Shown here piece by piece: positions 11,755 through 48,461 of a stretch of 58,729 nt of DNA. The stretch covers positions 1 to 58,729 of the forward strand of contig JBCCHT010000060.1 of the NCBI GenBank assembly GCA_039028615.1, written 5' to 3'. The DNA comes from Myxococcota bacterium (GTDB taxonomy: Bacteria > Myxococcota_A > Polyangia > Nannocystales > Nannocystaceae). The notes beneath the pieces are model-generated. The model was not told where the DNA came from, ran no database searches, and saw only the letters and a list, made by a program, of their open reading frames with translations. The translations under genes were made by a program, and so were the position numbers. Each line of letters opens with the position of its first letter. Positions within the stretch are counted from its first letter, which is position 1.

Positions 11755-11820
11755 GAAACCGCCATCGGTCGAGTCGAAAACGCGTAGTCACCCATTCGCC
11801 CCGGATGCAACTATGAAGGG

Positions 11821-13281
11821 GTGATGCGAGTAGGTCGAACAGTAGCCATCTCGATGTTGGCGCTCTCCGTCGGCGCCTGTGTCAACGAGGGTGACGGGGG
11901 CAGCGATCCTGGCTTCACGGGCCTCACTGCCAGCGCCAGCGCGAGTAACTCGGCTGGCGACGCGACCGAAGGCGGCGGCACCGGCCAGGGGCCGGGCGGC
12001 ACCGGCGGCACCGGGGACGCCAGCGCTTCGGCCTCGGCGTCTGCGTCGGCTTCTGCCAGTGCGTCCGCGGACGACGGTAGCGACAGCGGACCGCCCGCCG
12101 AGTGTGGTGACCCGCCCAACCCGCCCGCGAACTACGACCTCACCGACAACGTCGCCCCCTCGCAGAGCCCCCCAGGAGGCCTTGCGGCGGAAGATACGCC
12201 GATGTTCGTCACCCTCGGCTGGGACGACAACGCCTACTCGGGCCTCGACGGCAGCGGAGGCGACGGTGGCATGGACTGGGCGGTCGCGCTCGGCTCTCGC
12301 ACCAACCCGGCGGGCTCGGGCAACTCCTCGACCTACGACGGCACGCCGATCTCGATGACGTTTTACATGACGTCGACGTATATCGGCGACTGGATCTCGG
12401 AGAGTCCCACCTACGTCAAGCGCTCCTGGCGAGCGGCCTACGACGGGGGCCACGAGATCGGCGTCCACACCCACAGCCACTCCGATGGCAGCGCCTTCAC
12501 TCCGGTGCAGTGGGCGGACGAGATGAACACCTGCATCGACTGGCTCAGCCGTCCCTACAACCCGGACGAGCCCAACACCGAGCCCGACGCGGCGGCGGGG
12601 ATCGGGGTCCCGCTCGACGAGATCTACGGCTTCCGCACGCCCTTCCTCGCCTACAACGATGCGATGTTGGGCAGCGTCGTCGACAACGGCGGCTTCTGGT
12701 ACGACTGCAGCATCGAAGAGGGCTTCCAGTGGGACCAAGACGGATCCGACTACTTCTGGCCCTACACCCTCGACGAGGGCAGCCCCGGGCACGAGGTCTT
12801 TGTCGGCTGGGATCCCGTCGCCAACCCTCCCATCACGCCGCGACCAGGCCTGTGGGAGCTCCCCGTCTACGCGCTGGTCGTCCCGCCCGACGACGTGGCG
12901 GCCGAGTATGACTTCGAGCCCGGGCTGCGCACGCGACTCAATGCACTGCACAGCTGGTTCGACGTCGAGGGCGGCAAGATCACCGGGTTCGACTACAACC
13001 TATGGGTCACCTTCGCGATGACCAAGGCCGAGTTCCTGGCCACCGTGAAGTACAGCTACGACCTGCGGCTCAACGGTAACCGAGCGCCCTTCATGCTCGG
13101 CACCCATACCGACTACTACAGCCCCAAGTACACCGGCGCGATGGCATCCACCGCGCAAGAGCGTCGAGAAGCCATCGAGGAGTTCCTCGATTACGTCCTC
13201 GAAAGCGAAGACTCTCGAATCGTCAGCGCGAAGGAAATCCTCGATTGGATGCGGGCACCGCAGCCGTTGGGATGCGGGTAA
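11821..13281 (+). CDS. Polysaccharide (chitin) deacetylase-like lipoprotein, CE4/NodB family
   Basis: VGAC lipobox, SA-rich linker, FVTLGWDD, GHEIGVHTHSH, GFRTPFL, YDCS, WPYTLD, GLWELP, NGNRAPF. Confidence 0.85.
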   Translation: MMRVGRTVAISMLALSVGACVNEGDGGSDPGFTGLTASASASNSAGDATEGGGTGQGPGGTGGTGDASASASASASASASASADDGSDSGPPAECGDPPNPPANYDLTDNVAPSQSPPGGLAAEDTPMFVTLGWDDNAYSGLDGSGGDGGMDWAVALGSRTNPAGSGNSSTYDGTPISMTFYMTSTYIGDWISESPTYVKRSWRAAYDGGHEIGVHTHSHSDGSAFTPVQWADEMNTCIDWLSRPYNPDEPNTEPDAAAGIGVPLDEIYGFRTPFLAYNDAMLGSVVDNGGFWYDCSIEEGFQWDQDGSDYFWPYTLDEGSPGHEVFVGWDPVANPPITPRPGLWELPVYALVVPPDDVAAEYDFEPGLRTRLNALHSWFDVEGGKITGFDYNLWVTFAMTKAEFLATVKYSYDLRLNGNRAPFMLGTHTDYYSPKYTGAMASTAQERREAIEEFLDYVLESEDSRIVSAKEILDWMRAPQPLGCG

Positions 13282-13287
13282 GCCACG

Positions 13288-15012
13288 ATGATCATCAACA
13301 ACCAGGCGATTGCCCTCGCCTCGGCCCTGCTCTTCGGGCCCGAGGCTGAGGAGACCACCACCGACACCGCGGCCGCGACCGACGCGGCTCCGGCCGCGAC
13401 CGAGTCCGAGCCCGCCACCGAGCCCGCCGCGCCTCCCGTGGTCGCGGCGGACAACACCGCCGGCAGTGCCGGAGTCGGTGTCGGATCGGCCGCGCACGAC
13501 AGCGGTGGCCCGCTGCACGTGCACCCCGACGACGAGGGTGACGGGCCGCAAGGCAGCGCCCTCCAGCGCCGCGTCGCCACCCGAGGAGGCCGCGAGGAGA
13601 CCAAGCCGCGCAAGAACCAGTTCAGCTTCCACGGCTTCTTCAACGCCCCGATGCGCGTGGGCTCCGGTCGCCGGGAGGATCCCGCCGACAACCAAAAGGA
13701 AGTCACCTTCCACGCTCCGCTGGTCCCCGACGATCAGTACCTCTCCGCCTCGCATACCCGGCACAACAACCGGAGCTGGGCCGAGCTGTACTTCGGCTAC
13801 GGCAGCGAGGTCGCCCGTGGCACGGTCGCGATCGAGGCGTTCAACTTCACCGACGCCGGCTTCAACCAGCAGATCGCCCAGTTCGGCATCGCGCAGGCCT
13901 TCCTGACCGTGAACCCGCCGCTGCGGCGCTCGCCGGTCAAGCTCAACTTCCGCGTCGGCGCCTTCGATGCTCGCTACGGCATGGCGGGCAAGTACGACCT
14001 CGGTGAGTACGAGACCTATCTGTTCGGCCGTACCCGCGCCCTGGGCGAGGTTGCGCGGCTCGAGATCCCCGTCCGCAACTTCACCTTCTGGGCGGAGCAC
14101 GGCATCGGGGCTACGCGGCCCGACCCGAACATCTACAACACCTCGCGCTTCACCCTGCTGCACCACGGCCACCTCGGCGCGGCCTACAAGCAGATGGTGC
14201 AGTTCGGCGTCCACTACATGGGGGCGTACGCGCGAGAGGAAGACCGCGAAGGCGACCTGAACCCGGGTGTCGGCGACGGTGCCATGCACGTCATGGGCCC
14301 CGACTTCCGCCTCGACTTCGGCCGCGGCGGCTACTGGTACGCGGGCTACTCGTATATCGACGCCATCCGGGCGCGCTCGGTGGGTCCTGCGATCGAGGTC
14401 ATCCACTCGCAGGGCGGCGGCAACTTCTCGCTGGGCATCGTCGACAACTACCTCGAGGGCCCCACCAACCAGTCGAACGGCAACGGCGAGATCCACACCG
14501 TGCTGTTCCAGACGGACCACTCGATCCGCAAGCTCATCCAGGGCGACAAGTTCTGGGGCGAGGGCCGCGATGCGACCGTCTCGCTGTACGGCATGGTCAA
14601 CAAGATTCGCAGCGACGATCCCGACGCCAACGGCAACCTGCGCATCAAGTACGGTACCGACGTGGTGGGCTCGCTCATGCCCTGGCTCGCCCTGGCCATG
14701 CGCTACGACCGGGTGCAGCCCAACTCGAGCGTCCCCGAGCAGTCGTTCGCGATCCTCTCGCCGCGGCTGGTGTTCCGCACGGCGTGGATCAGCCGCGAGC
14801 AGATCTCCATCCAGTACTCCCGGTACTTCTACAACCAGCGCGAGTGCGACCCCATGGGCAACCCGCTGCTGTGCGCCCAGGCGCCCGCGGCCGCGGGTGT
14901 TCCCGACGGCCTGGGAGCGACCTCCGAAGACCAAAACGGTGAAGGCCGCGGGGCCCCGATCGCCCCGCCCGATCTCCAGGTCGTGACGCTCAGCGCGTCC
15001 GTCTGGTGGTAG
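13288..15012 (+). CDS. Putative outer-membrane beta-barrel (porin-like) protein
   Basis: N-terminal hydrophobic stretch, A/P/T-rich linker, many amphipathic aromatic-rich beta strands, C-terminal strand VVTLSASVWW. Starts 6 bp after the deacetylase stop. Confidence 0.6.
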   Translation: MIINNQAIALASALLFGPEAEETTTDTAAATDAAPAATESEPATEPAAPPVVAADNTAGSAGVGVGSAAHDSGGPLHVHPDDEGDGPQGSALQRRVATRGGREETKPRKNQFSFHGFFNAPMRVGSGRREDPADNQKEVTFHAPLVPDDQYLSASHTRHNNRSWAELYFGYGSEVARGTVAIEAFNFTDAGFNQQIAQFGIAQAFLTVNPPLRRSPVKLNFRVGAFDARYGMAGKYDLGEYETYLFGRTRALGEVARLEIPVRNFTFWAEHGIGATRPDPNIYNTSRFTLLHHGHLGAAYKQMVQFGVHYMGAYAREEDREGDLNPGVGDGAMHVMGPDFRLDFGRGGYWYAGYSYIDAIRARSVGPAIEVIHSQGGGNFSLGIVDNYLEGPTNQSNGNGEIHTVLFQTDHSIRKLIQGDKFWGEGRDATVSLYGMVNKIRSDDPDANGNLRIKYGTDVVGSLMPWLALAMRYDRVQPNSSVPEQSFAILSPRLVFRTAWISREQISIQYSRYFYNQRECDPMGNPLLCAQAPAAAGVPDGLGATSEDQNGEGRGAPIAPPDLQVVTLSASVWW

Positions 15013-15050
15013 CCGAGACTCGACAACCCCCTCCGAGACACGAGAACACG

Positions 15051-16979
15051 ATGGCGATGAAATATCTGTGGGCAGGGGCCTTGGTGGCCACTGGCGGGAT
15101 GCTTGCGGCCTGCAACGCGGGCACCGATGGCAACGGCGCCTTCAATACCGACGGGCTACCGACCGCGGGGGGCGACGCCACCGACGGCAATACCGACGGG
15201 GTCGATCCCGACGGCACGGCCGGCGACACCGACGGCGGCGGCACCAACCCGGGCGACACGTCGGTCGATCCCGAGCCCATGGAGTGCGGCACCGATGCCG
15301 ACGCGGGTGGCTTCACCTTCGAGCGCGTCTCGACGTGGCTCGGTGACTCGACCGCCGCGTACTCGATGATCCACGACGACATGTGCGGACCGGCGCTGGC
15401 CGGCATCCACGAGCTCGCCGTGCCCGCTCTCAACGAGCGCGGGCTCCCGGCCGCGCTCGGGCCCTTCATCGACGCCTGCGACGAGCACTCGCTGTGGGGC
15501 GAGGTCCAGGCCGCTCAGGCCGCCGGCCACGAGATCGCCAACCACTCGTACTCGCACGCCGAGGTCATCCCCGAGAACGCCCAGTACGAGATCGGAGACG
15601 CCAAGGCGGCCTTCGACGCCAACCTCGACGATCCGGTCAGCTTCTTCGTCTTCCCCTTCGACTTCTTCACCGCCGACACCATCGCGGTGGTGGGCAGCAC
15701 GGGGCATATCGGCGCGCGCGCGGGCAACCGCGACGACAACGACGCCTTCACCAACCCGCCGCTCAACAGCTCGGCGCCTCAGGCCGACCTGGAGATCGAG
15801 TTCGACGTCTGGCCGCGGACCTTCTCCAAGTACTCGATGTACCCGGACAACGACATCCTCGCCGTGCACGTGCACGAGGCGATCGAGGATGGGGCGTGGG
15901 CGGTCCGCGAGTTCCACAGCGTGTCGGCGAGCGAGAACCCGCCGCAGGACGGCTCCGAGGGTTTCGGCCCCGTGCCCATCTCCGTGTACGAAGACCACCT
16001 CGACTTCCTCGTCGAGGGCTGGCACTCGGGCGAGGTCTGGACGGGCAACCCGTCGGACATCATCCGCTACCGCCACGCCCGCGGCACCTGCGTCGCGAGC
16101 CTCTCCGGCAGCACGCTCGAGTGGGACACGAGCAACGCCGAGTGCCAGGAGTTCATGACCCCGCTGACGGTGGTGGTCACGACCGGCAACGACGTCGACA
16201 GCGTCGAGGCCCTCCAGGGCGGTCAGCCCATGCCCACGCGCAAGCTGGGCGCCAACACCTACGCCGTCACCTCCGATCCCTCGGCGGGCGCGGTCGAGCT
16301 GGCCGGGTGCTCCGACGCCGGCCTCGAGCTGTCCGGCGGCCTGCCGCCCAAGCCGACCCCGGCCGAGTCGGTCTGCGACCTCACCTTGGTGGTGGGCTCG
16401 GGTAGCCCCGGGTGCATGGACGACTTCGAGCGTCCCCCCGAGGAGTTCCAGGTCCTGCCCAACCCCTCGCAGTGCGACGGCCGTGACGGCAGCTGGTCGT
16501 GGTACCCGCAGACCGCCGACGTCGAGATGGTCGACGACGGGGGCAACACCGTGCTGCGCTACGCGGGCAACGGCCTCGGCGCCTGGACGGGAGCCACGCT
16601 GGCCTTCCTCGGCGGCAACGGAGCGGGCACCTGCTACGACGCCAGCGCCTACACCGGGCTGCGCTTCCGCATACGCGGGCAGATCACCGGGGGCGACCCG
16701 GCCGGCGGCATGATCGTCAGCTTCGTGACCGCGGAGACCCAGACCCAGGTCTTCGGCGGCGACCTCGAAGGCGAGGGCGGCCACTTCCACTCCATCGTGA
16801 CCCCGAGCGCGGCGTGGACGACGGTCGAGATCCCCTTCTCGAGCCTCAACACTCCCGCGTGGGGTGATTCGGCCGGGTTCACCGAGTTCGCCGACGGCAA
16901 GCTGCAGGTGATCGACTTCGGCATCAGCAACACCGCCACCAGCTTCGAGCTGTTCTTCGACGACATCGAGCTCTACTAG
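15051..16979 (+). CDS. Lipoprotein with CE4 polysaccharide deacetylase domain and C-terminal CBM11-like domain
   Basis: LAAC lipobox; YSMIHDD, GHEIANHSYSH, FVFPF, WAVREFH; C-terminal YDASAYTGLRFRIRG...WTTVEIPFSSL...FELFFDDIELY. Confidence 0.82.
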   Translation: MAMKYLWAGALVATGGMLAACNAGTDGNGAFNTDGLPTAGGDATDGNTDGVDPDGTAGDTDGGGTNPGDTSVDPEPMECGTDADAGGFTFERVSTWLGDSTAAYSMIHDDMCGPALAGIHELAVPALNERGLPAALGPFIDACDEHSLWGEVQAAQAAGHEIANHSYSHAEVIPENAQYEIGDAKAAFDANLDDPVSFFVFPFDFFTADTIAVVGSTGHIGARAGNRDDNDAFTNPPLNSSAPQADLEIEFDVWPRTFSKYSMYPDNDILAVHVHEAIEDGAWAVREFHSVSASENPPQDGSEGFGPVPISVYEDHLDFLVEGWHSGEVWTGNPSDIIRYRHARGTCVASLSGSTLEWDTSNAECQEFMTPLTVVVTTGNDVDSVEALQGGQPMPTRKLGANTYAVTSDPSAGAVELAGCSDAGLELSGGLPPKPTPAESVCDLTLVVGSGSPGCMDDFERPPEEFQVLPNPSQCDGRDGSWSWYPQTADVEMVDDGGNTVLRYAGNGLGAWTGATLAFLGGNGAGTCYDASAYTGLRFRIRGQITGGDPAGGMIVSFVTAETQTQVFGGDLEGEGGHFHSIVTPSAAWTTVEIPFSSLNTPAWGDSAGFTEFADGKLQVIDFGISNTATSFELFFDDIELY

Positions 16980-29877: not shown

Positions 29878-30810
29878 CTACGTGCGCCGGAACGCTGCTC
29901 GGTGACCGTGTTGCAAGGCCTGCTCGACCCGGGCCTCGCTCATGCCCGGCACCTCGGCCACCCGCGCGTACTCGGTGGGCGCATCGATGTGGGACATCAG
30001 CGTGTTGTCCGTGTTGATGCAGACCCGCATGCCCTGCTCGAGCCAGGTGGCGATGGGGTGCTCGGCGATCGCCCCGATGATCCCGGTGTGCAGGTTCGAG
30101 GTGACGCAGGCCTCGATGGTCACGCCGCGATCGATCACCAGCGCGGCGACGCGAGGGTCGTGCAGCACCGTCGTCCCGTGGCCGATGCGCTGCGCGAGCA
30201 AGCCTTCGATGGCCACCCGGATCTCGGCCGGCGGTCGGCCCTCGCCCGCATGCACGGTACGCCCCAAGCCGCGGTCGCGGGCGCGTCGAAATGCGGGGCG
30301 ATAGTGATGCATCGAAAACTCGTGCGCCGGGCCTGGGCCCCCCGCCAGATCGATGCCCACCACGCCACGGCGGGCAGCGGCGAGGTCGACCAAGGCTTCG
30401 AGCAGATCGGGAGGATCACCGTAGAGCCCACACAGCACGATGCCCGCGCGGCCCGACGCTCCGGCCACCGCCGCATCGACGATCGAGGCCATGGTCGCGC
30501 CGCGCTGCCGATGCAGCTGAGGCGCAAAGCGGATCTCCAGCGTATCGACCCCTTCGGCGGCCGCGTCCTCGCAGATCTCCGCCGCCACGCGCTCGACGGC
30601 CGCGGGCTGCTGCAGCACCGACAGGGTCCGCTCGAAGCACGCCAGCGCGGCGGACAGACCCATCCCCGCGTGAAAACCGAAGTCCTCGGGCACCTCGATG
30701 CCCTCGGCAGCGGCGAGCTCGGCCAGGGTGGACGCGCGCAGCGAGCCGTCGAGATGGCGATGCAAGTCCGAGAGCCTCGGGCTCGCAGGGGAGGCTTGGG
30801 GGGTGCTCAC
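29878..30810 (-). CDS. add: Adenosine/adenine deaminase family protein
   Basis: DLHRHLDGS, EIRFAP, GIDLAG, VHAGE, RIGHG, EACVTSN, INTDN. GTG at 30810 overlaps the upstream stop. Confidence 0.85.
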   Translation of the reverse strand: MSTPQASPASPRLSDLHRHLDGSLRASTLAELAAAEGIEVPEDFGFHAGMGLSAALACFERTLSVLQQPAAVERVAAEICEDAAAEGVDTLEIRFAPQLHRQRGATMASIVDAAVAGASGRAGIVLCGLYGDPPDLLEALVDLAAARRGVVGIDLAGGPGPAHEFSMHHYRPAFRRARDRGLGRTVHAGEGRPPAEIRVAIEGLLAQRIGHGTTVLHDPRVAALVIDRGVTIEACVTSNLHTGIIGAIAEHPIATWLEQGMRVCINTDNTLMSHIDAPTEYARVAEVPGMSEARVEQALQHGHRAAFRRT

Positions 30811-31577
30811 GCGGGCTCGGCCGCCTCGCTTTCGTCGCCCGCGGTGGGCTCCGGCTCGGTGCCCAGGTTCGGCGCCTCGGTCTCGCCCGGACAGATGCCT
30901 CCGGCCTCGACCCACGCCGCGAAGCTCTTCACGAAGCTCTCGTGACTGATGGGCGGCGGCGTGCGATCGCCTCCCGGATTCCAGCCCCACAACACCAGCG
31001 GATCGTGCTCGACGTGATGGAGGAGGTCGGCGAGGCTGCGCTCGCCGTTTTGGCCGGGGTCACGCAGCTGCTTGCACAGCGCGGTGATCGTGCGGTTCTC
31101 GAACACCATGGGCGTCTCCTTGGGAGGGAGCTGCCAGTGCGGGGCTCCGGGCGGGCCGGGGGGGCCTCCGGGGAGCTCGGTGTTGTGCTCGGCGTGGCAG
31201 GTGCTGCACGCGAGGCCCGACTCCATGCTCGCCCGGCTGATGTTCATGGCGTGCACGCCTCCCACGGCGCCCAGCGGTCGATCGCCTTCGGGGTGGCAGT
31301 TCATGCAGCGCGGCGAGACGAGCACCTCGTAGATCGGCTTGAACGACGACGAGGCCTCGACGGGGGAGGCCGGCGGCAGCTCGACTCCGGGCGTGGCAAC
31401 GCTCGGCTCGTCGGCGCCGGCCGTCTTGCCCGCGTAGCCCATCGGCTCCGGGTCGTCGCCCACCCACGCCAGCGTGATGCCGACCCCCGCCAGGACGAGG
31501 AGAATGAGGCCGAAGAAGACCACGCCGAGCCACTCGGCGATCGTGGCGGTGACCCGTCCTAGTCGCTTCCAGTTCAT
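30807..31577 (-). CDS. Membrane-anchored diheme c-type cytochrome of the type found next to isoquinoline oxidoreductase genes
   Basis: N-terminal TM helix, SPRCMNCH, CSTCH, PGAPHWQL, LCKQLRDP, WGWNPG. Confidence 0.85.
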   Translation of the reverse strand: MNWKRLGRVTATIAEWLGVVFFGLILLVLAGVGITLAWVGDDPEPMGYAGKTAGADEPSVATPGVELPPASPVEASSSFKPIYEVLVSPRCMNCHPEGDRPLGAVGGVHAMNISRASMESGLACSTCHAEHNTELPGGPPGPPGAPHWQLPPKETPMVFENRTITALCKQLRDPGQNGERSLADLLHHVEHDPLVLWGWNPGGDRTPPPISHESFVKSFAAWVEAGGICPGETEAPNLGTEPEPTAGDESEAAEPA

Positions 31578-31592: not shown

Positions 31593-33884
31593 CTACAGGG
31601 TGGTGTCGGCCAGCTGCCGAGCAAGTTCGTTCTGCAAAGGGGCCCGCCGCAGCCGCTTGCCGCTGACGTCGAAGATCGCGTTGGCCAGCGCGCCCGCGAG
31701 GGGAGCCACCGCGGGCTCGCCCACGCCGCCGGGCTCGTCGGCGCCCTCCATGACCTTGGTGACGATCGTGGGGGTCTCGTGCATGCGCATCAGCCGATAG
31801 GTGTCGAAGTTGCCCTGCTGGACGACGCCGCCCTCCACCGTGATCTCGCCCCAAATCGCCGCGGTGAGTCCGAAGATGATGCTGCCTTCCATCTGCGCCG
31901 CCACCAGGTCGGGATTGACCGCGAGGCCGCAGTCGAGCACGCAGTACACGGTGTCGACCACGATCTGGCCATCGTCGACCCGGGCCTCGACCACCTGGGC
32001 GCAGAAGCTGCCGAAGGCCTCGGCCACCGCGATGCCGCGACCGGTGCCCTCGGCCAGGGTTCGTTCGCCCCAGCCGCTGAGTTCGGCCACCGCATCGAGC
32101 ACGCCCAGCCAGCGCGGCGCCTCGGCGAGCATGCTGCGACGGAACGCCAAGGGCTCCTTGTTGGCCGCATGGGCCAGCTCGTCGATGAAGCCCTCGATGA
32201 CGAAGGAGTTGATCGAAAAGCCCACCGAACGCCACCAGCTGGCCGTAAACGGGGTGGCGAAGGGCGTGTAGGTGACGTGCTGGTTGGGGATCGCGTAGGC
32301 GTGGTTGGTCGCCCCTTCGGTCGCAAGCACGTCGGTGATGAGCACGTTGCTGGAGATCACCCGGGTGCTGTTGCGACCGATCCAGTGCCGCAGCCGCAGA
32401 GGGATCCACATGGGGAACAACGAATCGAGCTCGAGATCGGCGAGGATCGACTGCGACTGCGTGTCGTAGGACAAGCCGGTCACCGTCCCCGCGTCATCGA
32501 CCCGCGCCTGCACCTTCGACCAGGCCAGCGGGCGATAGCGGCCGCCCCGGGTGTCGCTCTCGCGCGACCAGATGATCTGGACCGGGCGCCCCACGGCCTT
32601 GGAGAGCCACGCCGCCTCGAGCACGGCCTCGGGGTGGCTGCGGCGACCGAACGCACCACCGAGGAACGGCGTGTGCACCAGGACCTCGCTGCGCTCGATG
32701 TCGAGGATCCTCGCGACCGCTTCCTGGATGAGGATGGGCCCCTGGTTGCCCGTCCAGACCTCGCAGCCCTCGTCGGTGACGTGCGCCACCGCGTTCATCG
32801 GCTCCATGGGCGCGTGCGCCAGGTAGGGGACCTCGTAGACCGCCTCGACCAGCGTGCCCTGGGCTTCGTCGAACTTGCCCTCGTCGAGCACGTCGCGGGC
32901 CCGGCTGCGTTCGCTGCTGCGGAGCTCGTCCCACAGGGCCGAGGTGGAGAACTTGCTGCCCTCGCCCTCGGACCACTCGACCTTCACCGCCGCGGCGGCG
33001 CGCAGGGCCTGCCAGTACTTCTCGGCCACGACCCCGACGCCTCGCTCGGTGGTCACCACGTCGACGACGCCCGGCATCTTCTTGGCGTCGTCCGCATCGA
33101 CCGACAGCGCCTTTGCATCCGTCCGCGGGGGGTGGAGCATCACCGCCTTGGCCATGTTCGGCACCTGCACGTCGATGCCGAACTCGGCCGTGCCCGTGAC
33201 CTTGGCGTGATTGTCGACCCGGCGAGCGGGGGTCCCGATCACGCGGAAGTCCTTGCGTGCCTTGAGCTTCGGTTTCTCGGGGACCTTCAGCGTGTTGGCG
33301 ATCTCCACCAGCTCGCCGTAGGTCACCGAGCGATCGCCCGACGCCTCGACCACGCGACCGGCCTCGGCCCGCAGCCCGTCCTCGGACACGCCCCACTTTT
33401 GCGCCGCGGCCGAGACCAGCATCATGCGGGTGGCCGCCGCGACCTCGCGCGCGGGCACATAGCTGCCCGAGATGCCCGTGGAGCCGCCCGTGATGTGGGG
33501 CCCGAGCGCCGTGTACTTCTTGGCCGAGTCGGCGAAGTAGATCTCGATCTTCTCCAGCGGGACCTCGAGCTCTTCGGCGATCAACATCGCCTGACCGGTC
33601 ATCGTGCCCTGGCCCATCTCGGCCTTGGTGCACGCGAAGATCACCCGGTCGTCGGGCGTGATCGTGATGAAGGCATTGGGCTTGAAGGCCCCCTCGATGT
33701 CGCCCATCTCCAGGGTGGAGCGCTCGTCGAGGCTCATCGAACGCGCGGCCCCGTAGACGCACAGCGCCCCCGTGCCCGCGACCATGCCCAACAAGAAGCG
33801 ACGGCGTCCGATCCCGCGGCGGCGCCCGAGCTTGGGCTCGGCCTTGGGCTCGTCCGGGGTGCCCGTTTGCTCGACGTCGCTCAC
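31593..33884 (-). CDS. iorB: Xanthine-oxidase-family molybdopterin-binding subunit (IorB/aldehyde oxidoreductase type) with Tat-like signal
   Basis: [68 protein letters not shown] at 33884. Confidence 0.9.
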
Positions 33885-34357
33885 TTCGCGGCTCCCTTCG
33901 CCGCGCCGTTGCGACCCGCCACCGCATGAATGGCCTGGCGGATGCGTGGGTAGGTGCCGCAGCGGCACAGCGACCCCGACATGGCGGCGTCGATGTCCGC
34001 ATCGGTGGGGTTGGGCTTGGCCTCGAGCAGGGCCGCCGCCATCATCAGCTGGCCCGGTTGGCAGTAGCCGCACTGCGGCACGTTGGCGTCCATCCACGCC
34101 TGCTGCAGGGGGTGCAGCTCGTCATCGTGGCCGAGCCCCTCGATGGTGGTGATCTCGTGGCCCTGCGCGTCGCCGACGGCGGTCACGCACGAGCGCTTGG
34201 CGTTCCCGTCGAGGTGCACCGTGCACGCCCCACACAGCGCCCGACCGCAGCCGAACTTGGTCCCGGTCAAGCCGAGTTCTTCCCGCAGAACCCATAGCAA
34301 CGGGGCATCCTCGGGAACATCGACGTCCCGTTCTTCGGCGTTGATCTTCAGCTTCAT
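33881..34357 (-). CDS. iorA: (2Fe-2S)-binding subunit (IorA/CoxS type)
   Basis: [38 protein letters not shown]. Confidence 0.93.
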
Positions 34358-34614
34358 GATGGGCGCTCCTCGTCCACGGGGATCTGCGTGGCGCGGTCGT
34401 TCGGCACAACTCTAGAGCAGTGGTGCACGGTTGCGCTTCCCCGATCGTGCGAAAGTTTCCTCCCGCGGACGTCCCAAGATTTAGCGCATTGCGACCAGGG
34501 CGCCCAACGGCACATCGCGCCAATCGAGGGCGTCATTTGGCGCGATCGGTTGGTGGCATCCGGGCCAGGATGCGCTTGGCTGAAGCGCGTGGGGCATGGA
34601 GTAGGATGGCCGCG

Positions 34615-35817
34615 ATGACCGTCGACCCCCGATGGTTTCCCGCTTTGGGTCACTCCGCCGTCTATCTCGATTCGGCGACGACGGCACTGATGCCGCAGTC
34701 GGTCATCGATCGCGTCTCGGCCGTACTCGCTCGCGGAGGCAGTGCGGGGCGCAGCGTGCATGCGCTGGGCCATGGCGCCACCGACGACTACGCGCAGGCA
34801 CGGGCAACCGTGGCGCGCGCGTTGGGGGGCACGGCGGACGAGGTCGTATTCGTGCGATCGGCCACCGAGGGGCTCAATACCGTGGCCGAGGGCTGGGCGG
34901 CGCCGCGCCTGGGACCGGGCGACGAGGTCTGTGTCTCGCTCGCCGAGCACCACAGCAACCTGTTGCCCTGGCAGCGGATCTGCCAGCGTACGGGCGCGAC
35001 GCTCTCGATCGTCGGCGTCGATGCCGAGGGTGATCTGGACCGAGACGACCTGCGGCGCAAACTGGGGCGCAGGACCAGGGTGCTGGCGCTCACCCACGTT
35101 TCGAATGTCACGGGGGCGCTCACCGATCTGGCCGCGGTTGAGCAGATCGTCGCCGACTCGGACGCCGACGATCTTGCGGTGGTGCTCGATGGCGCGCAGG
35201 CGATGCCTCATTTGCCGATCGACGTGACCCGGCTCGGCTGCGACTTCTATGTGTTCTCCGGGCACAAGGTCTACGGGCCCCCTGGGGTCGGTGTGGTCTG
35301 GGCCAAGCCCCGGCGTTGGGCGGAAACGGAGCCGCTGCTGCTCGGCGGAGGCATGGTCTCGCGGGTCTTCGCCGATCGCTACGAACCCGCCGAAGGCCCG
35401 GCGCGCTTCGAGGCGGGCACGCCCAATGTGGCCGCCGCCGCCGGACTCGCCACCGCCCTGGCGTTTGTCGAAGAGCACCGCGATCTCGGTGCCCATCGAG
35501 CCCTGCTCGAGCGAGCGGTGGACACCCTCGACCGACTCGAGGGCGTGCGGATCACCGGGCGTCCCGTGCATCGCATCGGGGCCGTGTCCTTCGTCGTCGA
35601 GGGCGTGCACGCGCACGACGTGGCCTCGGTGCTGGACGAAGAGCACATCGCAGTGCGGGCCGGTCACCACTGTGCGCAGCCGCTGCTTCGACACCTCGGG
35701 GTCGCGAGCACCGTGCGGGCTTCGTTCGGGCTTCACAACCGCCCGGCCGATGTCGAGCGACTCGCCTCCGCCCTCACCCGCGTGCAACAGGTCTTCGGGA
35801 GGTCGAAGCCGGCATGA
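34615..35817 (+). CDS. sufS: Cysteine desulfurase/selenocysteine lyase, SufS (group II) type
   Basis: YLDSATT, EHHSNLLPW, DGAQ, FSGHKVYGP (PLP lysine), RFEAGTP, RAGHHCAQP (catalytic Cys). TAGGAT sits 7 nt before ATG 34615. Confidence 0.9.
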   Translation: MTVDPRWFPALGHSAVYLDSATTALMPQSVIDRVSAVLARGGSAGRSVHALGHGATDDYAQARATVARALGGTADEVVFVRSATEGLNTVAEGWAAPRLGPGDEVCVSLAEHHSNLLPWQRICQRTGATLSIVGVDAEGDLDRDDLRRKLGRRTRVLALTHVSNVTGALTDLAAVEQIVADSDADDLAVVLDGAQAMPHLPIDVTRLGCDFYVFSGHKVYGPPGVGVVWAKPRRWAETEPLLLGGGMVSRVFADRYEPAEGPARFEAGTPNVAAAAGLATALAFVEEHRDLGAHRALLERAVDTLDRLEGVRITGRPVHRIGAVSFVVEGVHAHDVASVLDEEHIAVRAGHHCAQPLLRHLGVASTVRASFGLHNRPADVERLASALTRVQQVFGRSKPA

Positions 35818-37829
35818 CCTCGCTGTACAACGAGCGGCTGCTGGCCCTCGCCCGCGCCACGACGTTCGCTCGCATCCCCCCCGAGGCCACCACCCGCGCC
35901 TCGCTCACCAACCCGCTGTGCGGAGACGAGATCGAAGTCGGGCTGGCGATCGTCGACGGTCACATCGAAGACATCGGGTTCGTGGCCAATGCCTGTGCCG
36001 TGTGCACCGCATCGGCCTCGGCCATGGCGCAGCGGCTGCAGTCGGGCTCCATCGATCGCTTTGGCCCCGAGCTGGCCCGACTCGAAGCCGTCGTTCGCGG
36101 TGAGCCCGAGGCGGACTCCGAGCTGACCGCCTTTGCCTCGCTCGCCGATTTCCCGAGCCGGAGGCCCTGCGCCTTGCTGCCGTGGCGAGCCCTCGACCGG
36201 GCCCTGCATGCCCCCGCCTCCGCACACGGTGCTCCAGCCCCCGCCACGCGAGCTCCCGTCGCAACCGACTCCGCCTGGAGTGCAATCCGAGCGCTTCGAG
36301 CCCGCGGCGAAGCGACCACCCTCGCGACCCTGATCTCCGTCGAAGGCTCCAGCCCGTGCCCCATCGGCAGCAAGATGGTGGTAGGCAGCTCGGGCGAGTT
36401 CTGGGGCTCGGTCTCCGGCGGCTGCGTCGAGTCGGCCATCGTCCGCGCTTCACTGGAGATGCTCGACGCCACCGACGGCGACGACAGCCAGCTGCTGGAC
36501 TACACGATCGCCAACAGCCAACAGGGAGAGCTCGGCTTGCCCTGCGGCGGTCGAATTCGGGTGCACCTGTGCCCCGCGCCCACCGATACCCAGCTCGACG
36601 TCCTCGAGCAGGCCGAATCCAGCGACGGCTCCTTGTTCGTGATCCCCCTGGACGGCGGCCCGGTCCGCATCGCCGAGACCCAACAGCTGCTCGAGCCCGG
36701 CGAGGCCACCACCCCCGGTCCGCGATTGGTCGAGCACGATGGACACACGCTCTACGTCGAGCCGCTGGCGCGCGCCCGTCGGCTCGTGCTCGTCGGCGGC
36801 ACGCACATCGCTCAGAAGCTCGCCCGCCTCGCCGCCGAGGTCGGCCTCGCGCCCATCGTCGTCGACCCTCGCACCGCCCTCGCCAACCCCGGCCGATTTC
36901 CCGATCTACGGCTCGTCAACGCCCGTCCCGAGCAGGCCCTGCCCGAGCTGATCGACGAGCGCACCGCGGTCGTCATGCTGACCCACGACGCCAAGCTCGA
37001 CGACCCCGCCCTCGAGGTCGCCCTGACCAGCCCGGCGTACTACGTGGGCGCGTTGGGCAGCCGCAAGACCCAGCGCGCCCGTCTCGAACGATTGCGCGCC
37101 CGCGGCCTCGACGACCGCGCCCTCTCCCGCCTGCACGGCCCCGCCGGGGTGCCGATCGGGGGCCAAGGTGCCGCCGAGATCGCCCTGTCCATCCTCGCCG
37201 AGATCGTCGCCGTCCGTCGCATGAACGACGCCGCCCACCGCCGCATCGGTGCCGTGGTCCTCGCCGCCGGAGCCTCTCGCCGCGCGGGCGACATCAACAA
37301 GCTGCTCCACCCGGTCGACGGCGAGCCGATGATCCGTCGCGTCGTACGAACGACCCTCGATGCGGGCGCCAGCCCCTGCCTCGTCGTGCTCGGACACCAA
37401 GCCGATGCGGTCCGCCAGGCCCTGCACGGCCTCCCCGTCGAGTTCGTCTTCAACGAGCGACACACCGAGGGCATGGGCACCTCCATCGCCCGCGGCTTCG
37501 AGGCCATGACCACCACCGAGGTCGGGGCCGCCTTCATCGTCCTGGGTGACATGCCGTTTCTACGCGCCGACGATCTCGAGCAGCTGATGGTCGCCTATCA
37601 AGCGAGCACCCAGCACCTCATCGTGGCCCCCGAAGCCGGCGAAGGCAAAGAGCGTCGGCTCGGCAACCCCGTGCTCTGGCCGCGCCGCTACTTCGCCGAG
37701 CTGACCCGCCTATCGGGCGACCGCGGGGCCAAGCGCATCATGATGGCCTCCTCGGGCGCACTGCTGCGCGTGCCCGTCGATCACGCGGGCGTCCTGCAGG
37801 ACATCGACACGCCAACGCCCGCCTCCTAG
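35814..37829 (+). CDS. SufU - XdhC/CoxI - XdhC C-terminal - MocA-like nucleotidyltransferase fusion protein
   Basis: One uninterrupted frame from ATG 35814, overlapping the sufS stop. SufU motifs NPLCGD, ACAVCTAS, FPSRRPCALLPW; XdhC motifs GSVSGGCVE, GLPCGG, THD, YVGALGSRK, HGPAG..IG...EIALSILAEI; MocA motifs LAAGASRR..NKLL, GMGTSI, LGDMP, GNPV, GDRGA, DIDT. Confidence 0.9.
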   Translation: MTSLYNERLLALARATTFARIPPEATTRASLTNPLCGDEIEVGLAIVDGHIEDIGFVANACAVCTASASAMAQRLQSGSIDRFGPELARLEAVVRGEPEADSELTAFASLADFPSRRPCALLPWRALDRALHAPASAHGAPAPATRAPVATDSAWSAIRALRARGEATTLATLISVEGSSPCPIGSKMVVGSSGEFWGSVSGGCVESAIVRASLEMLDATDGDDSQLLDYTIANSQQGELGLPCGGRIRVHLCPAPTDTQLDVLEQAESSDGSLFVIPLDGGPVRIAETQQLLEPGEATTPGPRLVEHDGHTLYVEPLARARRLVLVGGTHIAQKLARLAAEVGLAPIVVDPRTALANPGRFPDLRLVNARPEQALPELIDERTAVVMLTHDAKLDDPALEVALTSPAYYVGALGSRKTQRARLERLRARGLDDRALSRLHGPAGVPIGGQGAAEIALSILAEIVAVRRMNDAAHRRIGAVVLAAGASRRAGDINKLLHPVDGEPMIRRVVRTTLDAGASPCLVVLGHQADAVRQALHGLPVEFVFNERHTEGMGTSIARGFEAMTTTEVGAAFIVLGDMPFLRADDLEQLMVAYQASTQHLIVAPEAGEGKERRLGNPVLWPRRYFAELTRLSGDRGAKRIMMASSGALLRVPVDHAGVLQDIDTPTPAS

Positions 37830-37985
37830 CGCGGTGAGTCTGCAATCCGCTCCAAAATAACACCGCCCCCGCGGCCCATGCCTGCGTTCCTCATCGGTTG
37901 CTCATGCCCAATGAACGCCCTCTTCGCGCCTTGGCATGGCCCGCGCTGACAGCGTTCTTTTGAAACGGATTGCAGACTCACCACA
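37830..37985. mobile_element. 156-bp MITE-like element with ~28-bp terminal inverted repeats and CTAG direct repeats
   Basis: Left end CGCGGTGAGTCTGCAATCCGCTCCAAAA; right end (reverse complement) TGTGGTGAGTCTGCAATCCGTTTCAAAA. CTAG at 37826-37829 and 37986-37989. No internal ORF. Confidence 0.8.
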
Positions 37986-44240: not shown

Positions 44241-45599
44241 ATGAGCCGCTACGCGCTGCCGCTGCTGCTGTGCCTGGGCTGCGCGTGTGGCCCCGATCTC
44301 GCCCCGATGGACGCCCAAGAGGGCTCGGGGGAGGGCTCGGGCGCCTCGACCGACGACGGAGCCGAAGGCGACACCACCACGGGAGACGGTGCCGACGGCA
44401 GCTCCACGGGCGAGTTTCCCGACCACTGCGCCAACCTCGATCCCGCTGCTGGCGACATCTGCTACGTCGAGCACCTCATCGACGTCCCCGGCGACCTCTC
44501 GGCCCTGAGCGATCAGAACTCCGACGGGCTCCTCGACCTCGTCGTCGCGCAGGGCCTCGACTGCTGCGGTGACCGCGAGGAGCCCACGGGGCTGTGGCTG
44601 CTCACGGGGACCGACGAGGGCCTGTTCGGTACCCCCCAGCTGCTGTTCGAGACCACCGATACCTTCGATGCCCTCATCCCCATGGGCCCGGGGCCCGACG
44701 GGCAGCCCCGGGTGCTGACCGCTCGCGTCGACGAAGTCAGCTTTCTCTCCGAGTCGGTCCGCGCCACCGTCGTGGGGCAACAGTTCATCGACGTGGCCCT
44801 GCCGATCCCGAGCTTTTTCCCCAACGAAGGTCGTGCCGCCGATCTCGATGGCGACGGCATTCTCGACTTCGTCGTCAGCCGGGGCGGCGAGATCACCTTC
44901 GCCCTGAGCCAGCCCCAGGGAACCTTCGGTGTCATCGAGTACGACATGGACCTGCCCGGGTTTCTCTCGTTGATGGTCGCCGACGACGATGGGGACGGCG
45001 TCGACGATCTGCTGGTGATGGGCGACGGCTCCTCCTACTCACCGCGCGGAGGCTTCGTCGGCGACTGGTCCCATACCCGCCCGGGCCCCGTGCCCGGCTC
45101 CATCCCCGAGGCCGACCAGTGGACGATGGACATCGGCACGCACCTGCTGACGGACGACTGTCGACTGCTCGACCTCGATGACGACGGACACCTCGACCTG
45201 TGGGCGAGGCACTTCGACTTCGATCCGGTCGCCATGGCGACCGAGCAAGACCGACTGGTGATCGCGCGCGGCACCCACGACGGCTTTGCCCCCCAAGTCG
45301 AGACCTTGCTCGACGGCCCCGCGAGCGCCATGGAGCCCCTGCTCGCGCCGCTCGACGGCCCGGCCCGTGCCGCCGTGCACATCCAGGGCGAACCCGAGCT
45401 GATGCTCATGACCCTGTCCGAGTCCTTGGAGTTCGAGCCCACCGCTCGCCTCGCGCTCACGCACCCTCCCGGCGTTCGGCAGTTCTCGAGCGTCCTGCAT
45501 GCGGCCGATCTCAACGCCGACGGATACAGCGACTTCGTGATCCTCGTGGAGACCGAGTCCGAGTTCGACGGCGTGGCCGTGCTGCTGTCTCAGCCCTGA
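44241..45599 (+). CDS. FG-GAP/VCBS repeat lipoprotein (paralog 1)
   Basis: GCAC lipobox, acidic linker, repeated DLDGDGxxD motifs. Confidence 0.85.
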   Translation: MSRYALPLLLCLGCACGPDLAPMDAQEGSGEGSGASTDDGAEGDTTTGDGADGSSTGEFPDHCANLDPAAGDICYVEHLIDVPGDLSALSDQNSDGLLDLVVAQGLDCCGDREEPTGLWLLTGTDEGLFGTPQLLFETTDTFDALIPMGPGPDGQPRVLTARVDEVSFLSESVRATVVGQQFIDVALPIPSFFPNEGRAADLDGDGILDFVVSRGGEITFALSQPQGTFGVIEYDMDLPGFLSLMVADDDGDGVDDLLVMGDGSSYSPRGGFVGDWSHTRPGPVPGSIPEADQWTMDIGTHLLTDDCRLLDLDDDGHLDLWARHFDFDPVAMATEQDRLVIARGTHDGFAPQVETLLDGPASAMEPLLAPLDGPARAAVHIQGEPELMLMTLSESLEFEPTARLALTHPPGVRQFSSVLHAADLNADGYSDFVILVETESEFDGVAVLLSQP

Positions 45600-45612
45600 G
45601 GCGAGGATCGAC

Positions 45613-47013
45613 ATGAAGCTTCGTGCACTTGCCATACTGTTGCCGCTCGGCACCGCCTGTGGCCCGAGTACCGCCCCCGAAGGCTCTGCCGAAGGCTCCA
45701 CCGGGGAGCTCGGCGACGACAGCTCGGGCGCGCCTGGGGCAGACACGACCGGAGACGAGGCCGACGCGGACTCGGGCTCCGACGACGGCTCCACGGGCGA
45801 GCCGCCGCTGCCTTGTGCCAACCTCGATCCCGCGCCCGGAGATACCTGTTACGTCGAGCACCTCATCGAGATGCGGGTGGAGATCGCGGCGTTGAGCGAT
45901 CAGAACGGGGACGGCCGGCTCGATCTGCTGCTCGCCCAGGGCTTCCGCTGCTGTGAAGAAGATGAGGACGAGCCCGAGCCGACCGGTTTGTGGCTCCTGC
46001 CGGGCAACGACGACGGGTCCCTCGGCGAGCCTCAGCTGCTCTTCGAGACGCCCGATCACTTCGAGTGGCTGCGTCCCATGGGCCCCGGTCCCGACGGGAT
46101 TCCGAGGGTCATGACTCGCCGTCGCGTGGACGTCGGCTTTCTCGTCGTGCACGAGTACGCCGTGCTCGCGGGGGAGCAATTCATCGAGGAGCCCTTGCCC
46201 CTGCCGCTTTTGGGTGACAACGAAGTCGGCGTCGCCGATCTCGATGGCGACGGGGTCCTCGATCTCGCAGCGATGGACGGCGACGCCTACTTCGCCCTGA
46301 GTGGACCGCAGGGGAGCTTTCAGATCACCCAGCACGAAATGGGGCAGGGGAGCTTCCTGACCGTGCTCGTCGGCGACGACGACGACGACGGCGTGGACGA
46401 CATGCTGCTCGTCGACGACGACCCACGCTATCCCGGACGCCCGTTCCCCAGCGACTTCATCGGGCAGTGGTCCCACACCCAGCCGGGGCCCGAGCCGACC
46501 CTCGTACCCGGCCCGGCCAACTGGACCCTGTCCGTCGGGGCCAACCTGCGACTGGGCGGAGCGAGGCTGCTCGACCTAGACGGCGACGGCCGTCTCGACC
46601 TGTGGACCCGGCATCGCGAGTACGTCCCGAGTGCCAACAGCTCCGTCCAGCGCCAGCTCGTGGTGGCTCTGGGCACCGAAGACGGGTTTGCCCCGCAGGT
46701 CGATACCGATCTCGAGACCACCGTGCTGACCATGGAGCCCCTACTCGCGCCGCTCGACGGCTCCTTGCGTGCCGTCGTCCATGTCGTCGACCACCCCGAC
46801 GAGCTGTGGCTCATGATGCTGTCTGACTCGCTCGAATTCGGCATCGGGACACGACTGGGGCTGAGCTACCCGACCCCGGACAACTCGAGCGACATCGTCG
46901 TGCACGTGGGTGACCTCAATGGCGATGGCCACTCCGACTTCGTCACCCGCGTCGGCAGTGATCCCCAGCGCACGGGTGCCGCCGTGCTGCTGTCGCGACC
47001 CGAATCGCCCTGA
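45613..47013 (+). CDS. FG-GAP/VCBS repeat lipoprotein (paralog 2)
   Basis: GTAC lipobox; shares CANLDP..GD.CYVEHLI, PMGPGPDG.PR, WSHT.PGP and GFAPQV with its neighbours. Confidence 0.85.
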   Translation: MKLRALAILLPLGTACGPSTAPEGSAEGSTGELGDDSSGAPGADTTGDEADADSGSDDGSTGEPPLPCANLDPAPGDTCYVEHLIEMRVEIAALSDQNGDGRLDLLLAQGFRCCEEDEDEPEPTGLWLLPGNDDGSLGEPQLLFETPDHFEWLRPMGPGPDGIPRVMTRRRVDVGFLVVHEYAVLAGEQFIEEPLPLPLLGDNEVGVADLDGDGVLDLAAMDGDAYFALSGPQGSFQITQHEMGQGSFLTVLVGDDDDDGVDDMLLVDDDPRYPGRPFPSDFIGQWSHTQPGPEPTLVPGPANWTLSVGANLRLGGARLLDLDGDGRLDLWTRHREYVPSANSSVQRQLVVALGTEDGFAPQVDTDLETTVLTMEPLLAPLDGSLRAVVHVVDHPDELWLMMLSDSLEFGIGTRLGLSYPTPDNSSDIVVHVGDLNGDGHSDFVTRVGSDPQRTGAAVLLSRPESP

Positions 47014-47024
47014 GCCGACGAATT

Positions 47025-47053
47025 CCGAGGATCGATCCGCGCCGAGCGGCGAC
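47025..47053 (+). promoter_or_regulatory. Conserved upstream motif CCGAGGATCGAT-N9-GCGGCGAC (copy 2)
   Basis: Matches the copy at 44202-44230; 10 nt before ATG 47064. Confidence 0.6.
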
Positions 47054-47063
47054 CACTCGAACG

Positions 47064-48461
47064 ATGAGTCGTTCCGCGCTGCTGGTGCTGTTGTCCCTCG
47101 GTTGGGCGTGTAGCCCCGATCTCGCCCCGGTGGGCCCTGAAGAGGGTTCCACGGGAGACGTCGACGTCGACGAGACAGGCGCGCCCCACGGGGGCTCGGG
47201 TGACGACACGGGAGCCGGGGACGAGGAAGAGAACGACGACGACGGTTCGAGCGACGACTCCACGGGCGAGGCGCCCTTGACCTGCATCAACCTCGACCCC
47301 GCGCCCGGTGACGTGTGCTACGTCGAGCACATCATCGAGGTGAGCTCCCAGGTCGTGGCCCTGAGCGACCAAAACGGAGACGGGCAGCTCGACCTGATCA
47401 CGGCCCAAGGGTACTGCTGCGAAGCGCGCAATCCCCATGAAGGCCTGTGGCTGCTGCCCGGCAATGCCGACGGTTCATTCGAAGCGCCCCAGCGACTGCA
47501 GGAGTTCGACTACCAGCAGTTCCACTATCGGTTCGAGCGGCTGCTCCCCATGGGTCCTGGCCCAGACGGAATACCGCGGATCCTGACCCACACCCGGGTC
47601 CGCTCCGTCGGTTCGGACTCCGAGCACTTCGCAGTACTCGCTGGGGAGACACTGCGCGAGCCGCTTTCGTTGCCCTACGGTTTCAGTATGCGAGGAGGCC
47701 CTGCCGATCTCGACGGCGACGGCACGCTCGACTTCGCCGCGGTGGACGACGTCGCGATCTTCGCCATGAGCGAGCCGAACGGAGGCCTCGCAGTCACCGA
47801 GCACCCGATGCCTGTGTTCCTTCCCGAAGCCGTCCTCGTTGGTGACCACGACGGCGACGGTCTCGACGACATTCTTCTCGTCGACGAACCTCACAGCGAC
47901 GAGCGTTTCGTGGGCTACTGGTCCCATACCCTCCCCGGGCCGGTCCCCAGCGCCGTACCCGAAGCGGATGAGTGGACGATGGAGGTCGGCCACCGACTTC
48001 GACCCGAGCAGGCCCGCCTGCTCGACATCGATGATGACGGGCGGCTCGACCTGTGGTCGAGACACCTCGCCAGCGCGCCGAGCAGCCCAGGTTTCGTGGC
48101 CGACCGGATCATCGTCGCGTTGGGCACCGACGACGGCTTTGCCCCCCAAGTCGAGACCGAGCTACCCGGCGCCGTCCTGGCCATGCAACCGCGACTCGCC
48201 GACGACAGCGGTCGGCTTCGCGCCGTCGTGAACGTGGACGGTCACAACGATGAGCTGTGGCTCCTGACGCTGTCCGAAGAACTGGAGTTCCAGGTCGATG
48301 CTCGACTCGGGCTCACGTTTCCCGCCGCGCACTTGGACCTCGATTCGAACGTGCGGGTCGGCGACCTCAACGGTGACGGGCACTCCGACTTCGTGACCCC
48401 GGTGCGCGTCGACTGGTCCTCGGCGATCGCCGTGCTGCTGTCGCGCCCGGGCTCGATCTGA
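47064..48461 (+). CDS. FG-GAP/VCBS repeat lipoprotein (paralog 3)
   Basis: GWAC lipobox, same conserved blocks as paralogs 1 and 2. Confidence 0.85.
   Translation: MSRSALLVLLSLGWACSPDLAPVGPEEGSTGDVDVDETGAPHGGSGDDTGAGDEEENDDDGSSDDSTGEAPLTCINLDPAPGDVCYVEHIIEVSSQVVALSDQNGDGQLDLITAQGYCCEARNPHEGLWLLPGNADGSFEAPQRLQEFDYQQFHYRFERLLPMGPGPDGIPRILTHTRVRSVGSDSEHFAVLAGETLREPLSLPYGFSMRGGPADLDGDGTLDFAAVDDVAIFAMSEPNGGLAVTEHPMPVFLPEAVLVGDHDGDGLDDILLVDEPHSDERFVGYWSHTLPGPVPSAVPEADEWTMEVGHRLRPEQARLLDIDDDGRLDLWSRHLASAPSSPGFVADRIIVALGTDDGFAPQVETELPGAVLAMQPRLADDSGRLRAVVNVDGHNDELWLLTLSEELEFQVDARLGLTFPAAHLDLDSNVRVGDLNGDGHSDFVTPVRVDWSSAIAVLLSRPGSI

Follow-up and report, generated by a model that had tools for sequence, protein, structure and literature searches.

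Within a 58,729-nucleotide contig of a Myxococcota bacterium of the family Nannocystaceae (JBCCHT010000060.1; this whole stretch is called the window, and its coordinates are used throughout), a gene for a SufS-type cysteine desulfurase is directly followed by one for a 671-aa protein that joins a SufU-type domain, an XdhC module and a MocA-like nucleotidyltransferase. Judging from sequence and gene context, the fusion and the adjacent SufS probably form a dedicated maturase, in which a persulfide relay from SufS to SufU would supply the terminal Mo=S ligand on the XdhC-bound cofactor for the neighbouring IorAB-type enzyme. Xanthine-oxidase-family enzymes need such a terminal sulfur, which a cysteine desulfurase places on XdhC-bound molybdenum cofactor (Moco), as described in the available text of PMC2997495 and PMC13653126. 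The first-pass annotation of the window had proposed that SufS/SufU were repurposed to sulfurate the cofactor in its molybdopterin cytosine dinucleotide form (Mo-MCD). This proposal gains genomic support here: no SufBD is detected in the genome, SufU tracks xdhC and one IorAB clade, and the relay residues are kept.

A single frame joins a SufU-type domain to XdhC and a MocA-like domain

The fusion is encoded by a single stop-free frame at 35814-37829 on the plus strand, whose ATG at 35814 overlaps the sufS stop codon TGA (35815-35817) to give an ATGA overlap. Both the single 671-aa frame coupled to sufS and its content of SufU, two XdhC domains and a MocA-type domain had been read from the sequence in the first-pass annotation, and both are borne out; sufS itself, taken there to begin at 34615, may start at 34606 instead. 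All four Pfam domains exceed their cut-offs: NifU_N at residues 27-82 (27.5 bits), XdhC_CoxI at 162-220, XdhC_C at 324-464 and NTP_transf_3 at 480-644. Residues 2-132 cover the whole of TIGR01994 (SufU) and score 76.6 bits, below its cut-off of 92.5; the fusion homolog in genome G420 passes this cut-off at 94.9 bits.

A frameshift or assembly artefact behind the fusion was considered and rejected. Positions 34400-37888 are identical, with 0 differences and 0 gaps, in one public 13.8-kb contig, which may be a source of the same DNA, and independent support for a single frame comes from 53 other full-length proteins with 37-62% identity by alignment.

The best NCBIfam models for the parts of the fusion are those of SufU, XdhC-type proteins and MocA, and the equivalog scores of the SufU, SufS, XdhC and MocA parts all lie under the models' own cut-offs. 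The MocA-like domain reaches 121 bits with TIGR03310 (cut-off 186) versus 32-39 bits with MobA models, and the sufS product reaches 410 bits with TIGR01979 (cut-off 475). The latter score bears on the idea that the pair delivers selenium, with SufS acting as a selenocysteine lyase for a Mo-Se enzyme. A selD gene is indeed present in the window's own genome (G000, whose contigs carry C-numbers), and selenocysteine lyase is a further name given to SufS chains of E. coli. However, selD lies on another contig, the SclA model yields just 128 bits against the 410 for SufS, and YqeB, a marker of selenium-dependent hydroxylases, exceeds its cut-off in 0/5 module-bearing genomes. We regard selenium delivery as highly improbable.

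The AlphaFold model of the whole chain is of good quality (predicted local distance difference test, pLDDT, 89.2; predicted template modelling score, pTM, 0.81), with weak regions at the linker (136-150) and at a loop (235-242). Its fold matches include solved XdhC-like chains (2we7/2we8 and 3on5 as the best matches), MocA-like chains and SufU chains including 5xt5_C. C204 and C244 of the XdhC module are common to 2we7, and either may correspond to the conserved Cys82 of Rhodobacter capsulatus XdhC. Predicting the SufU domain (1-134) and XdhC-MocA (150-668) as a complex gave a score of 0.00 against a mark of 0.32, which counts neither for nor against contact between them.

Residues of the SufS-SufU relay

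Residues C36, D38, C61 and C119 of the fusion correspond to C41, D43, C66 and C128 of B. subtilis SufU (mapped on 5xt5_D), and R116 to R125. In B. subtilis, zinc ligands, a sulfur-accepting Cys and a persulfide-stabilising Arg have been assigned among these (PMC13066941, PMC8918507, available text). All five are invariant in 54/54 fusions, at a mean identity of the SufU domain to the query of just 42%. The Cys/Asp/Cys/Cys zinc ligands proposed earlier are hence present, with the exception that the second Cys of ACAVC, C64, is not a canonical ligand. It is an extra Cys that creates a CxxC motif, is likewise invariant across the 54 fusions, and recurs in 12/14 related unfused xdhC-linked SufU proteins. 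CxxC as a unique signature of xdhC-linked SufU was rejected, since it occurs in SUF-operon SufU as well. By likeness to Cys121/Cys124 of FdhD, we speculate that C64 might serve as a resolving cysteine.

The desulfurase carries the matching residues. His337-Asp338 and Cys356 of the window's SufS have the spacing of His342-Asp343 and Cys361 in B. subtilis, where His342 is described as peculiar to SufS enzymes that work with SufU (PMC13066941, PMC8918507, available text). This His-Asp...Cys motif is kept in 8/8 fusion loci (the window and 7 others), and a quick tree of 49 rows places the fusion-linked SufS proteins, 8/8, on one branch with support 100.

Two features set the fusion's SufU domain apart, the missing N-terminal PRN motif and the missing Lys before the last Cys. 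In a comparison from which one fragment of <95 aa was left out, this Lys was found in 17/17 SufB-linked and in 23/23 other sufS-linked SufU proteins of the phylum (40/40 together; among the latter 23, sufB itself is visible in just 2 of these short loci), versus 0/54 fusions and 0/20 and 0/14 unfused xdhC/mocA-linked proteins. The domain also has neither of the two marks of IscU, the LPPVK motif and a His before the last Cys, which the genome's own IscU carries as LPPVK..HC. In a quick SufU tree (132 rows, 137 columns, 18 of the 54 fusions included), 18/18 fusions and 18/20 unfused xdhC-linked proteins fall outside the main SufU group with support 87. A single origin for all xdhC-linked SufU is not shown, as the proteins of G419 and G421 fall inside that group.

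Distribution of the fusion and of SUF and ISC systems

Source names of the fusion homologs include Nannocystaceae, Polyangiales, Deltaproteobacteria and Plesiocystis pacifica; one (P0012) is named Plesiocystis pacifica SIR-1 PPSIR1_17695. Of 73 genomes of the order, 5 have the whole fusion; in one more, G425, contig ends truncate it, and in another, G423, it is spread over two frames. A stricter first look at 401 genomes sampled from the class found it only in the window's own family, and elsewhere in the phylum, outside the order, G272 has the fusion plus a separate SUF system. In all 8 loci with flanking DNA, sufS lies directly upstream of the fusion and part of iorA-iorB-cytc adjoins; four complete loci read iorA-iorB-cytc-sufS-fusion on one strand. 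The N-terminal U domain is easily missed in annotation: precomputed Pfam lists it in 37/54 homologs, and the sources label these proteins 'XdhC family protein'.

SufBD were found in 0/73 genomes of the order, including 0/42 near-complete ones and 0/1 for the window's genome, against 14/14 in the control; these genomes carry IscU instead. With SufBD missing in this way, SufBCD cannot be what SufS and SufU work for in this lineage. The earlier statement that no sufBCD or isc genes are nearby therefore extends to the whole genome for SufBD, while a complete isc operon does exist on another contig, C10. SufE was not found in G000.

A full-length match to the SufU model occurs in 10/73 genomes of the order, and all 10 genes lie at xdhC in three architectures: 7 fusions, 2 sufS-sufU pairs divergent from xdhC-mocA (G419, G421) and 1 xdhC-like-sufS-sufU operon (G455). 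The XdhC-like gene ahead of sufS-sufU in G455 (L190:7-1092) has two tandem XdhC_C domains.

The likely client enzyme and its co-occurrence

Upstream of sufS lies an IorAB-type enzyme with molybdopterin-binding domains and a subunit for two [2Fe-2S] clusters, as in the xanthine-oxidase family (Table 1). The two gene sets had been said to face each other; they stand back to back, with the iorA and sufS starts 249 bp apart, and no sigma-70-like promoter was found in the region between them. The closest solved chain to IorB is 8gy3_C, the large subunit of an aldehyde dehydrogenase (E 1.8e-78), and the GEP motif is kept (Glu723). From family membership, this IorAB would carry a sulfido ligand. The N-terminus of IorB reads RRRFL, which we take to be twin-arginine-like. 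The 256-aa protein encoded behind iorB is likely a membrane-anchored dihaem cytochrome c partner, and a gene of this kind is conserved beside iorB in other fusion loci. AldFGH has been called MCD-dependent (PMC13230246, available text).

The window's IorB clade (at least 59% identity) is present in 10/73 genomes of the order, 9 of which are genomes with a SufU-type gene. Put differently, the clade occurs in 9/10 SufU-type genomes versus 1/63 others, with a patchy spread over four genera; a Fisher test (p ~1e-9) was not used, as kin are not independent. In G419 and G421 the clade enzyme and the maturase genes lie on different contigs and still co-occur.

The presence of a [2Fe-2S] subunit raises a different explanation, namely that SufS-SufU builds or repairs the two IorA clusters, with the U domain as a private scaffold and the fusion to XdhC just co-locating two jobs. 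U-type folds do act as scaffolds in IscU and NifU, Asp38 and three Cys are common to IscU, and SufSU reactions accumulate Fe-S species in vitro (PMC13066941, available text). On the other hand, the domain has the full-length SufU shape (TIGR01994 2-137) without the IscU marks, it is paired with a SufS of class II that carries the zinc-swap His, and the genome has its complete isc operon. None of the genome's four other xanthine-oxidase-family loci has sufSU close by, and sufU tracks xdhC/mocA even where no enzyme gene was seen in the examined stretch (at least 12/14 loci). A private Fe-S scaffold thus appears unlikely, and sulfuration of the cofactor is the reading we retain.

Table 1. Genes and domains of the putative maturase and its likely client in the window
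Feature	Coordinates	Strand	Remarks
sufS-type (class II) cysteine desulfurase	34606..35817	+	403 aa; Lys221 (SGHK) for pyridoxal phosphate
SufU-type domain, aa 1-132 of fusion	35814..36209	+	Pfam, TIGR01994, alignment, fold match
Ala/Pro-rich linker	36210..36278	+	19-40 aa across family; pLDDT <50 at aa 136-150
XdhC module (XdhC_CoxI + XdhC_C)	36279..37217	+	C204 (GGCVE) and C244 invariant
MocA-like nucleotidyltransferase	37239..37829	+	11-16-aa junction to XdhC, modelled as one helix
IorA-like small subunit, Fer2 + Fer2_2; likely client	33881..34357	-	Pfam
IorB/AldH-like molybdopterin-binding large subunit, 763 aa; likely client	31593..33884	-	Pfam, structure match
256-aa protein, N-terminal hydrophobic stretch, CxxCH at aa 91 and 124	30807..31577	-	sequence

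An adenosine deaminase-family gene (29878-30765) sits directly behind the cytochrome gene and is probably outside the system, because it was not seen beside other fusion loci. Elsewhere in the window, 44241-48458 holds three tandem paralogs of ~455 aa each with lipoprotein-like starts and FG-GAP repeats, and at 3235-8564 and 10304-16976 oligopeptide-type ABC transporter genes adjoin a series of genes whose products look secreted; polysaccharide deacetylase domains are present in two of these proteins.

Unfused modules in related and distant genomes

The closest xdhC genes outside the family were held by 27 genomes of other families, and 20 of their loci were examined. In 14/20 of these related loci of the class, sufS-sufU is divergent from xdhC, and in 13 of these a mocA-containing gene follows xdhC. 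SufBD were found in 0/5 tested genomes with the unfused module. In four genomes of another family xdhC overlaps a stand-alone sufU, and the three tested have SUF elsewhere. Among 80 metagenome loci picked by their SufU motif, 17 have sufB and 12 have xdhC and/or mocA (1 fusion and 11 others; a weak mocA match in L237 was left uncounted). The linkage of sufU to xdhC is recurrent and concerns a minority of xdhC loci. The fusion likely arose from unfused sufS-sufU/xdhC/mocA clusters of the kind seen in related families.

Further arrangements were noted. Compact xdhC-sufU-mocA operons with U proteins of ~120-130 aa occur at L257:5985-7875, L279:1-2806, L252, L267 and L275; their sulfur donor must be encoded elsewhere, as no sufS is in view. 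At L204:3229-5243 and L205:821-6771, a reverse-order MocA-XdhC fusion is followed by sufU, and the L205 stretch, which sits behind an IorB-like gene, continues with moeA, moaA and further Moco genes. Pairs of sufS-sufU with no sufB or xdhC within up to 7 kb are seen at L210, L216, L217, L231, L237, L238, L244, L247, L249 and L260. Twenty stand-alone U-type genes that lack PRN (L203, L206, L211, L212, L220, L232, L250, L255 and others) form a branch with good support; they often follow a gene of 350-420 aa and have a uvrB-like gene close by, and neither sufS nor sufB nor xdhC is visible around them. At L146:12281-15592 and L147:3096-6502, a lone XdhC_C-domain gene adjoins a three-gene set, presumably of the AmmeMemoRadiSam kind, near the sufSU/xdhC cluster in both genomes. 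Finally, in G301 (L151:7822-9720) and L201, ~500 aa without a Pfam match are attached to a SufU domain of the fusion type, which has CxxC and lacks the Lys; the contig shows no sufS or xdhC. This could be a chimera or a different recruitment.

The L205 arrangement, in which sufU precedes moeA, moaA and moaC/moaD/moaE-like genes (the last three by sequence look only), would fit a relay that serves an earlier stage, providing molybdopterin's dithiolene sulfurs via the MoaD thiocarboxylate, and thereby raises cofactor supply. The fusion loci, for which no family-model search was made, showed no gene recognisable as moaD/moaE/moeB-like, and XdhC, the partner that stays constant, works once Mo has been inserted. 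This role seems very unlikely to us.

Unfused forms, which are at least as common as the fusion, bear on whether the covalent link matters. The pair might sulfurate Moco by sulfide release or in trans, the link being genetic economy with no channelling; the long, variable linker (19-40 aa), modelled with low confidence, and the attachment of a fusion-type U domain to an unrelated 500-aa region in G301 would agree with this. The fusion nevertheless persists over 54 proteins down to 37% identity, and the whole-chain pTM of 0.81 is a weak hint of ordered packing. We consider this sulfide-release or in-trans reading quite unlikely; channelling along one chain, as the first-pass annotation had it, is a possibility at most.

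Proposed mechanism and its weak points

The sulfuration route could proceed in five steps. SufS would form a persulfide on Cys356 from cysteine, as expected from its family and residues. His337 of SufS would then dislodge C36 from the SufU domain's zinc, whereupon C36 would take the sulfur and R116 would hold it, as in B. subtilis; the residues for this reaction are present. The MocA-like domain would, by its sequence, add cytidine monophosphate (CMP) to molybdenum-molybdopterin (Mo-MPT) made elsewhere, that is, make MCD. In the fourth step, the weakest of all, the SufU domain on its flexible linker might pass the sulfur to the XdhC-bound cofactor, directly or via C204, and C64 may supply two electrons. 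XdhC would finally insert the sulfurated cofactor into IorB, likely followed by twin-arginine translocation (Tat) to the cytochrome c partner. 'Self-contained', as the machinery had been called, is too strong, because the genes that provide Mo-MPT must lie elsewhere (MoeA on C1); in addition, C5 carries a second XdhC and C30 another MocA-like gene for the four other xanthine-oxidase-family enzymes of the genome.

Several observations weigh against this proposal. Every equivalog score (SufU, SufS, XdhC, MocA) stays under its cut-off, and the fusion gene of G423 is split over two frames. The Lys is also lost in 18/25 stand-alone U-type genes without xdhC in view; its loss may therefore mark release from SufB and not service to XdhC. 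The CxxC is unspecific, being found in SufB-linked SufU (17 motif-selected loci, 3/23 unselected) and missing in 9/20 unfused xdhC-linked proteins. In a background set of 80 general xdhC loci, 76/80 have no sufU in the examined stretch and 4/80 do, and a whole-alignment contig scan returned mainly ordinary XdhC. Likewise, 63/73 genomes of the order have no SufU-type gene, yet 67 have an XdhC/MocA-type match. R. capsulatus NifS4 is moreover reported to act on XdhC directly (PMC2997495, available text), so that a sulfur carrier is not generally required. As to the co-occurrence, G447 has the IorB clade with just a C-terminal fusion remnant (aa 468-666, 199 aa, 64%), G455 has the module without the clade, and 12 genomes have more distant IorB-like genes (30-49%) without the module. 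Kinship inflates the overlap, and operon co-transfer explains part of it.

A wider generalisation can be offered only tentatively. The Lys-less, XdhC-linked U-type subfamily might carry the sulfur for a Moco sulfurase that is widespread in bacteria, a third U-type job beside Fe-S scaffolding and feeding SufB. The fusion would be its one-chain form, which makes MCD, takes persulfide on the zinc-bound C36, reduces it with the CxxC that it contains and adds the sulfur to the cofactor ahead of insertion.

Significance

In the literature searched, consisting of papers free of subscription and without their supplements, no paper naming both SufU and XdhC was found, in line with the first-pass annotation, which knew of no described SufU-XdhC-MocA protein. 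Nor did that literature contain a SufU role in delivering the activating sulfur to the Mo cofactor, and related searches on U-type proteins with XdhC or xanthine dehydrogenase gave nothing on this fusion by title and abstract start. According to the available text of a 2026 review, how Moco sulfuration is catalysed is not yet known (PMC13653126), and for R. capsulatus, precipitation of the variant prevented a test of what the XdhC cysteine does (PMC2997495, available text). SufS and the fusion offer a two-protein system with defined cysteines, in which the sulfur route is testable stepwise. If the proposal is true, the role of SufU would extend beyond Fe-S assembly, not every sufS-sufU pair should be taken for a SUF system, and with this system fully sulfurated xanthine-oxidase-family enzymes might be easier to produce in heterologous hosts.

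Comparison with known systems

The comparisons below follow the available text of the papers cited. B. subtilis SufS-SufU (5XT5) shares with the window system the four zinc ligands, R125, the SufS residues H342/D343/C361 and the fold (PMC13066941, PMC8918507). In contrast, the window's genome and order lack the SufBCD acceptor, K127 and PRN are lost, and the carrier is fused to XdhC. Eukaryotic ABA3/MOCOS likewise joins sulfur-mobilising and Moco-binding parts and has a SufS-like desulfurase (PMC13653126); in that case a MOSC domain is the fusion partner of the desulfurase, whereas in the window the desulfurase stands alone and it is the carrier that is joined to XdhC. E. coli FdhD is also a cofactor chaperone with a built-in sulfur-transfer site, in which the spacing of Cys121/Cys124 resembles that of C61/C64, a likeness that may be superficial because C61 is a predicted zinc ligand. 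Unlike the fusion, FdhD belongs by description to an unrelated family, serves bis-MGD enzymes (MGD, molybdopterin guanine dinucleotide) and has IscS as donor (PMC13653126).

XdhC is combined with a cytidylyltransferase in the xdhC-mocA clusters of B. subtilis (pucA-pucB) and Arthrobacter pAO1 (PMC2997495) and in XdhC-MocA fusions in databases, as in the window protein; no sufS or sufU is described for these. R. capsulatus XdhC-NifS4 pairs an XdhC chaperone with a cysteine desulfurase for a xanthine-oxidase-family enzyme, and for NifS4 both direct action on XdhC and a further essential role are described (PMC2997495, PMC13653126). The window has instead a dedicated SufS coupled to a U-type carrier fused to XdhC, plus a MocA-like domain. 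The window system works like XdhC-NifS4 with an added carrier and is not a SUF system.

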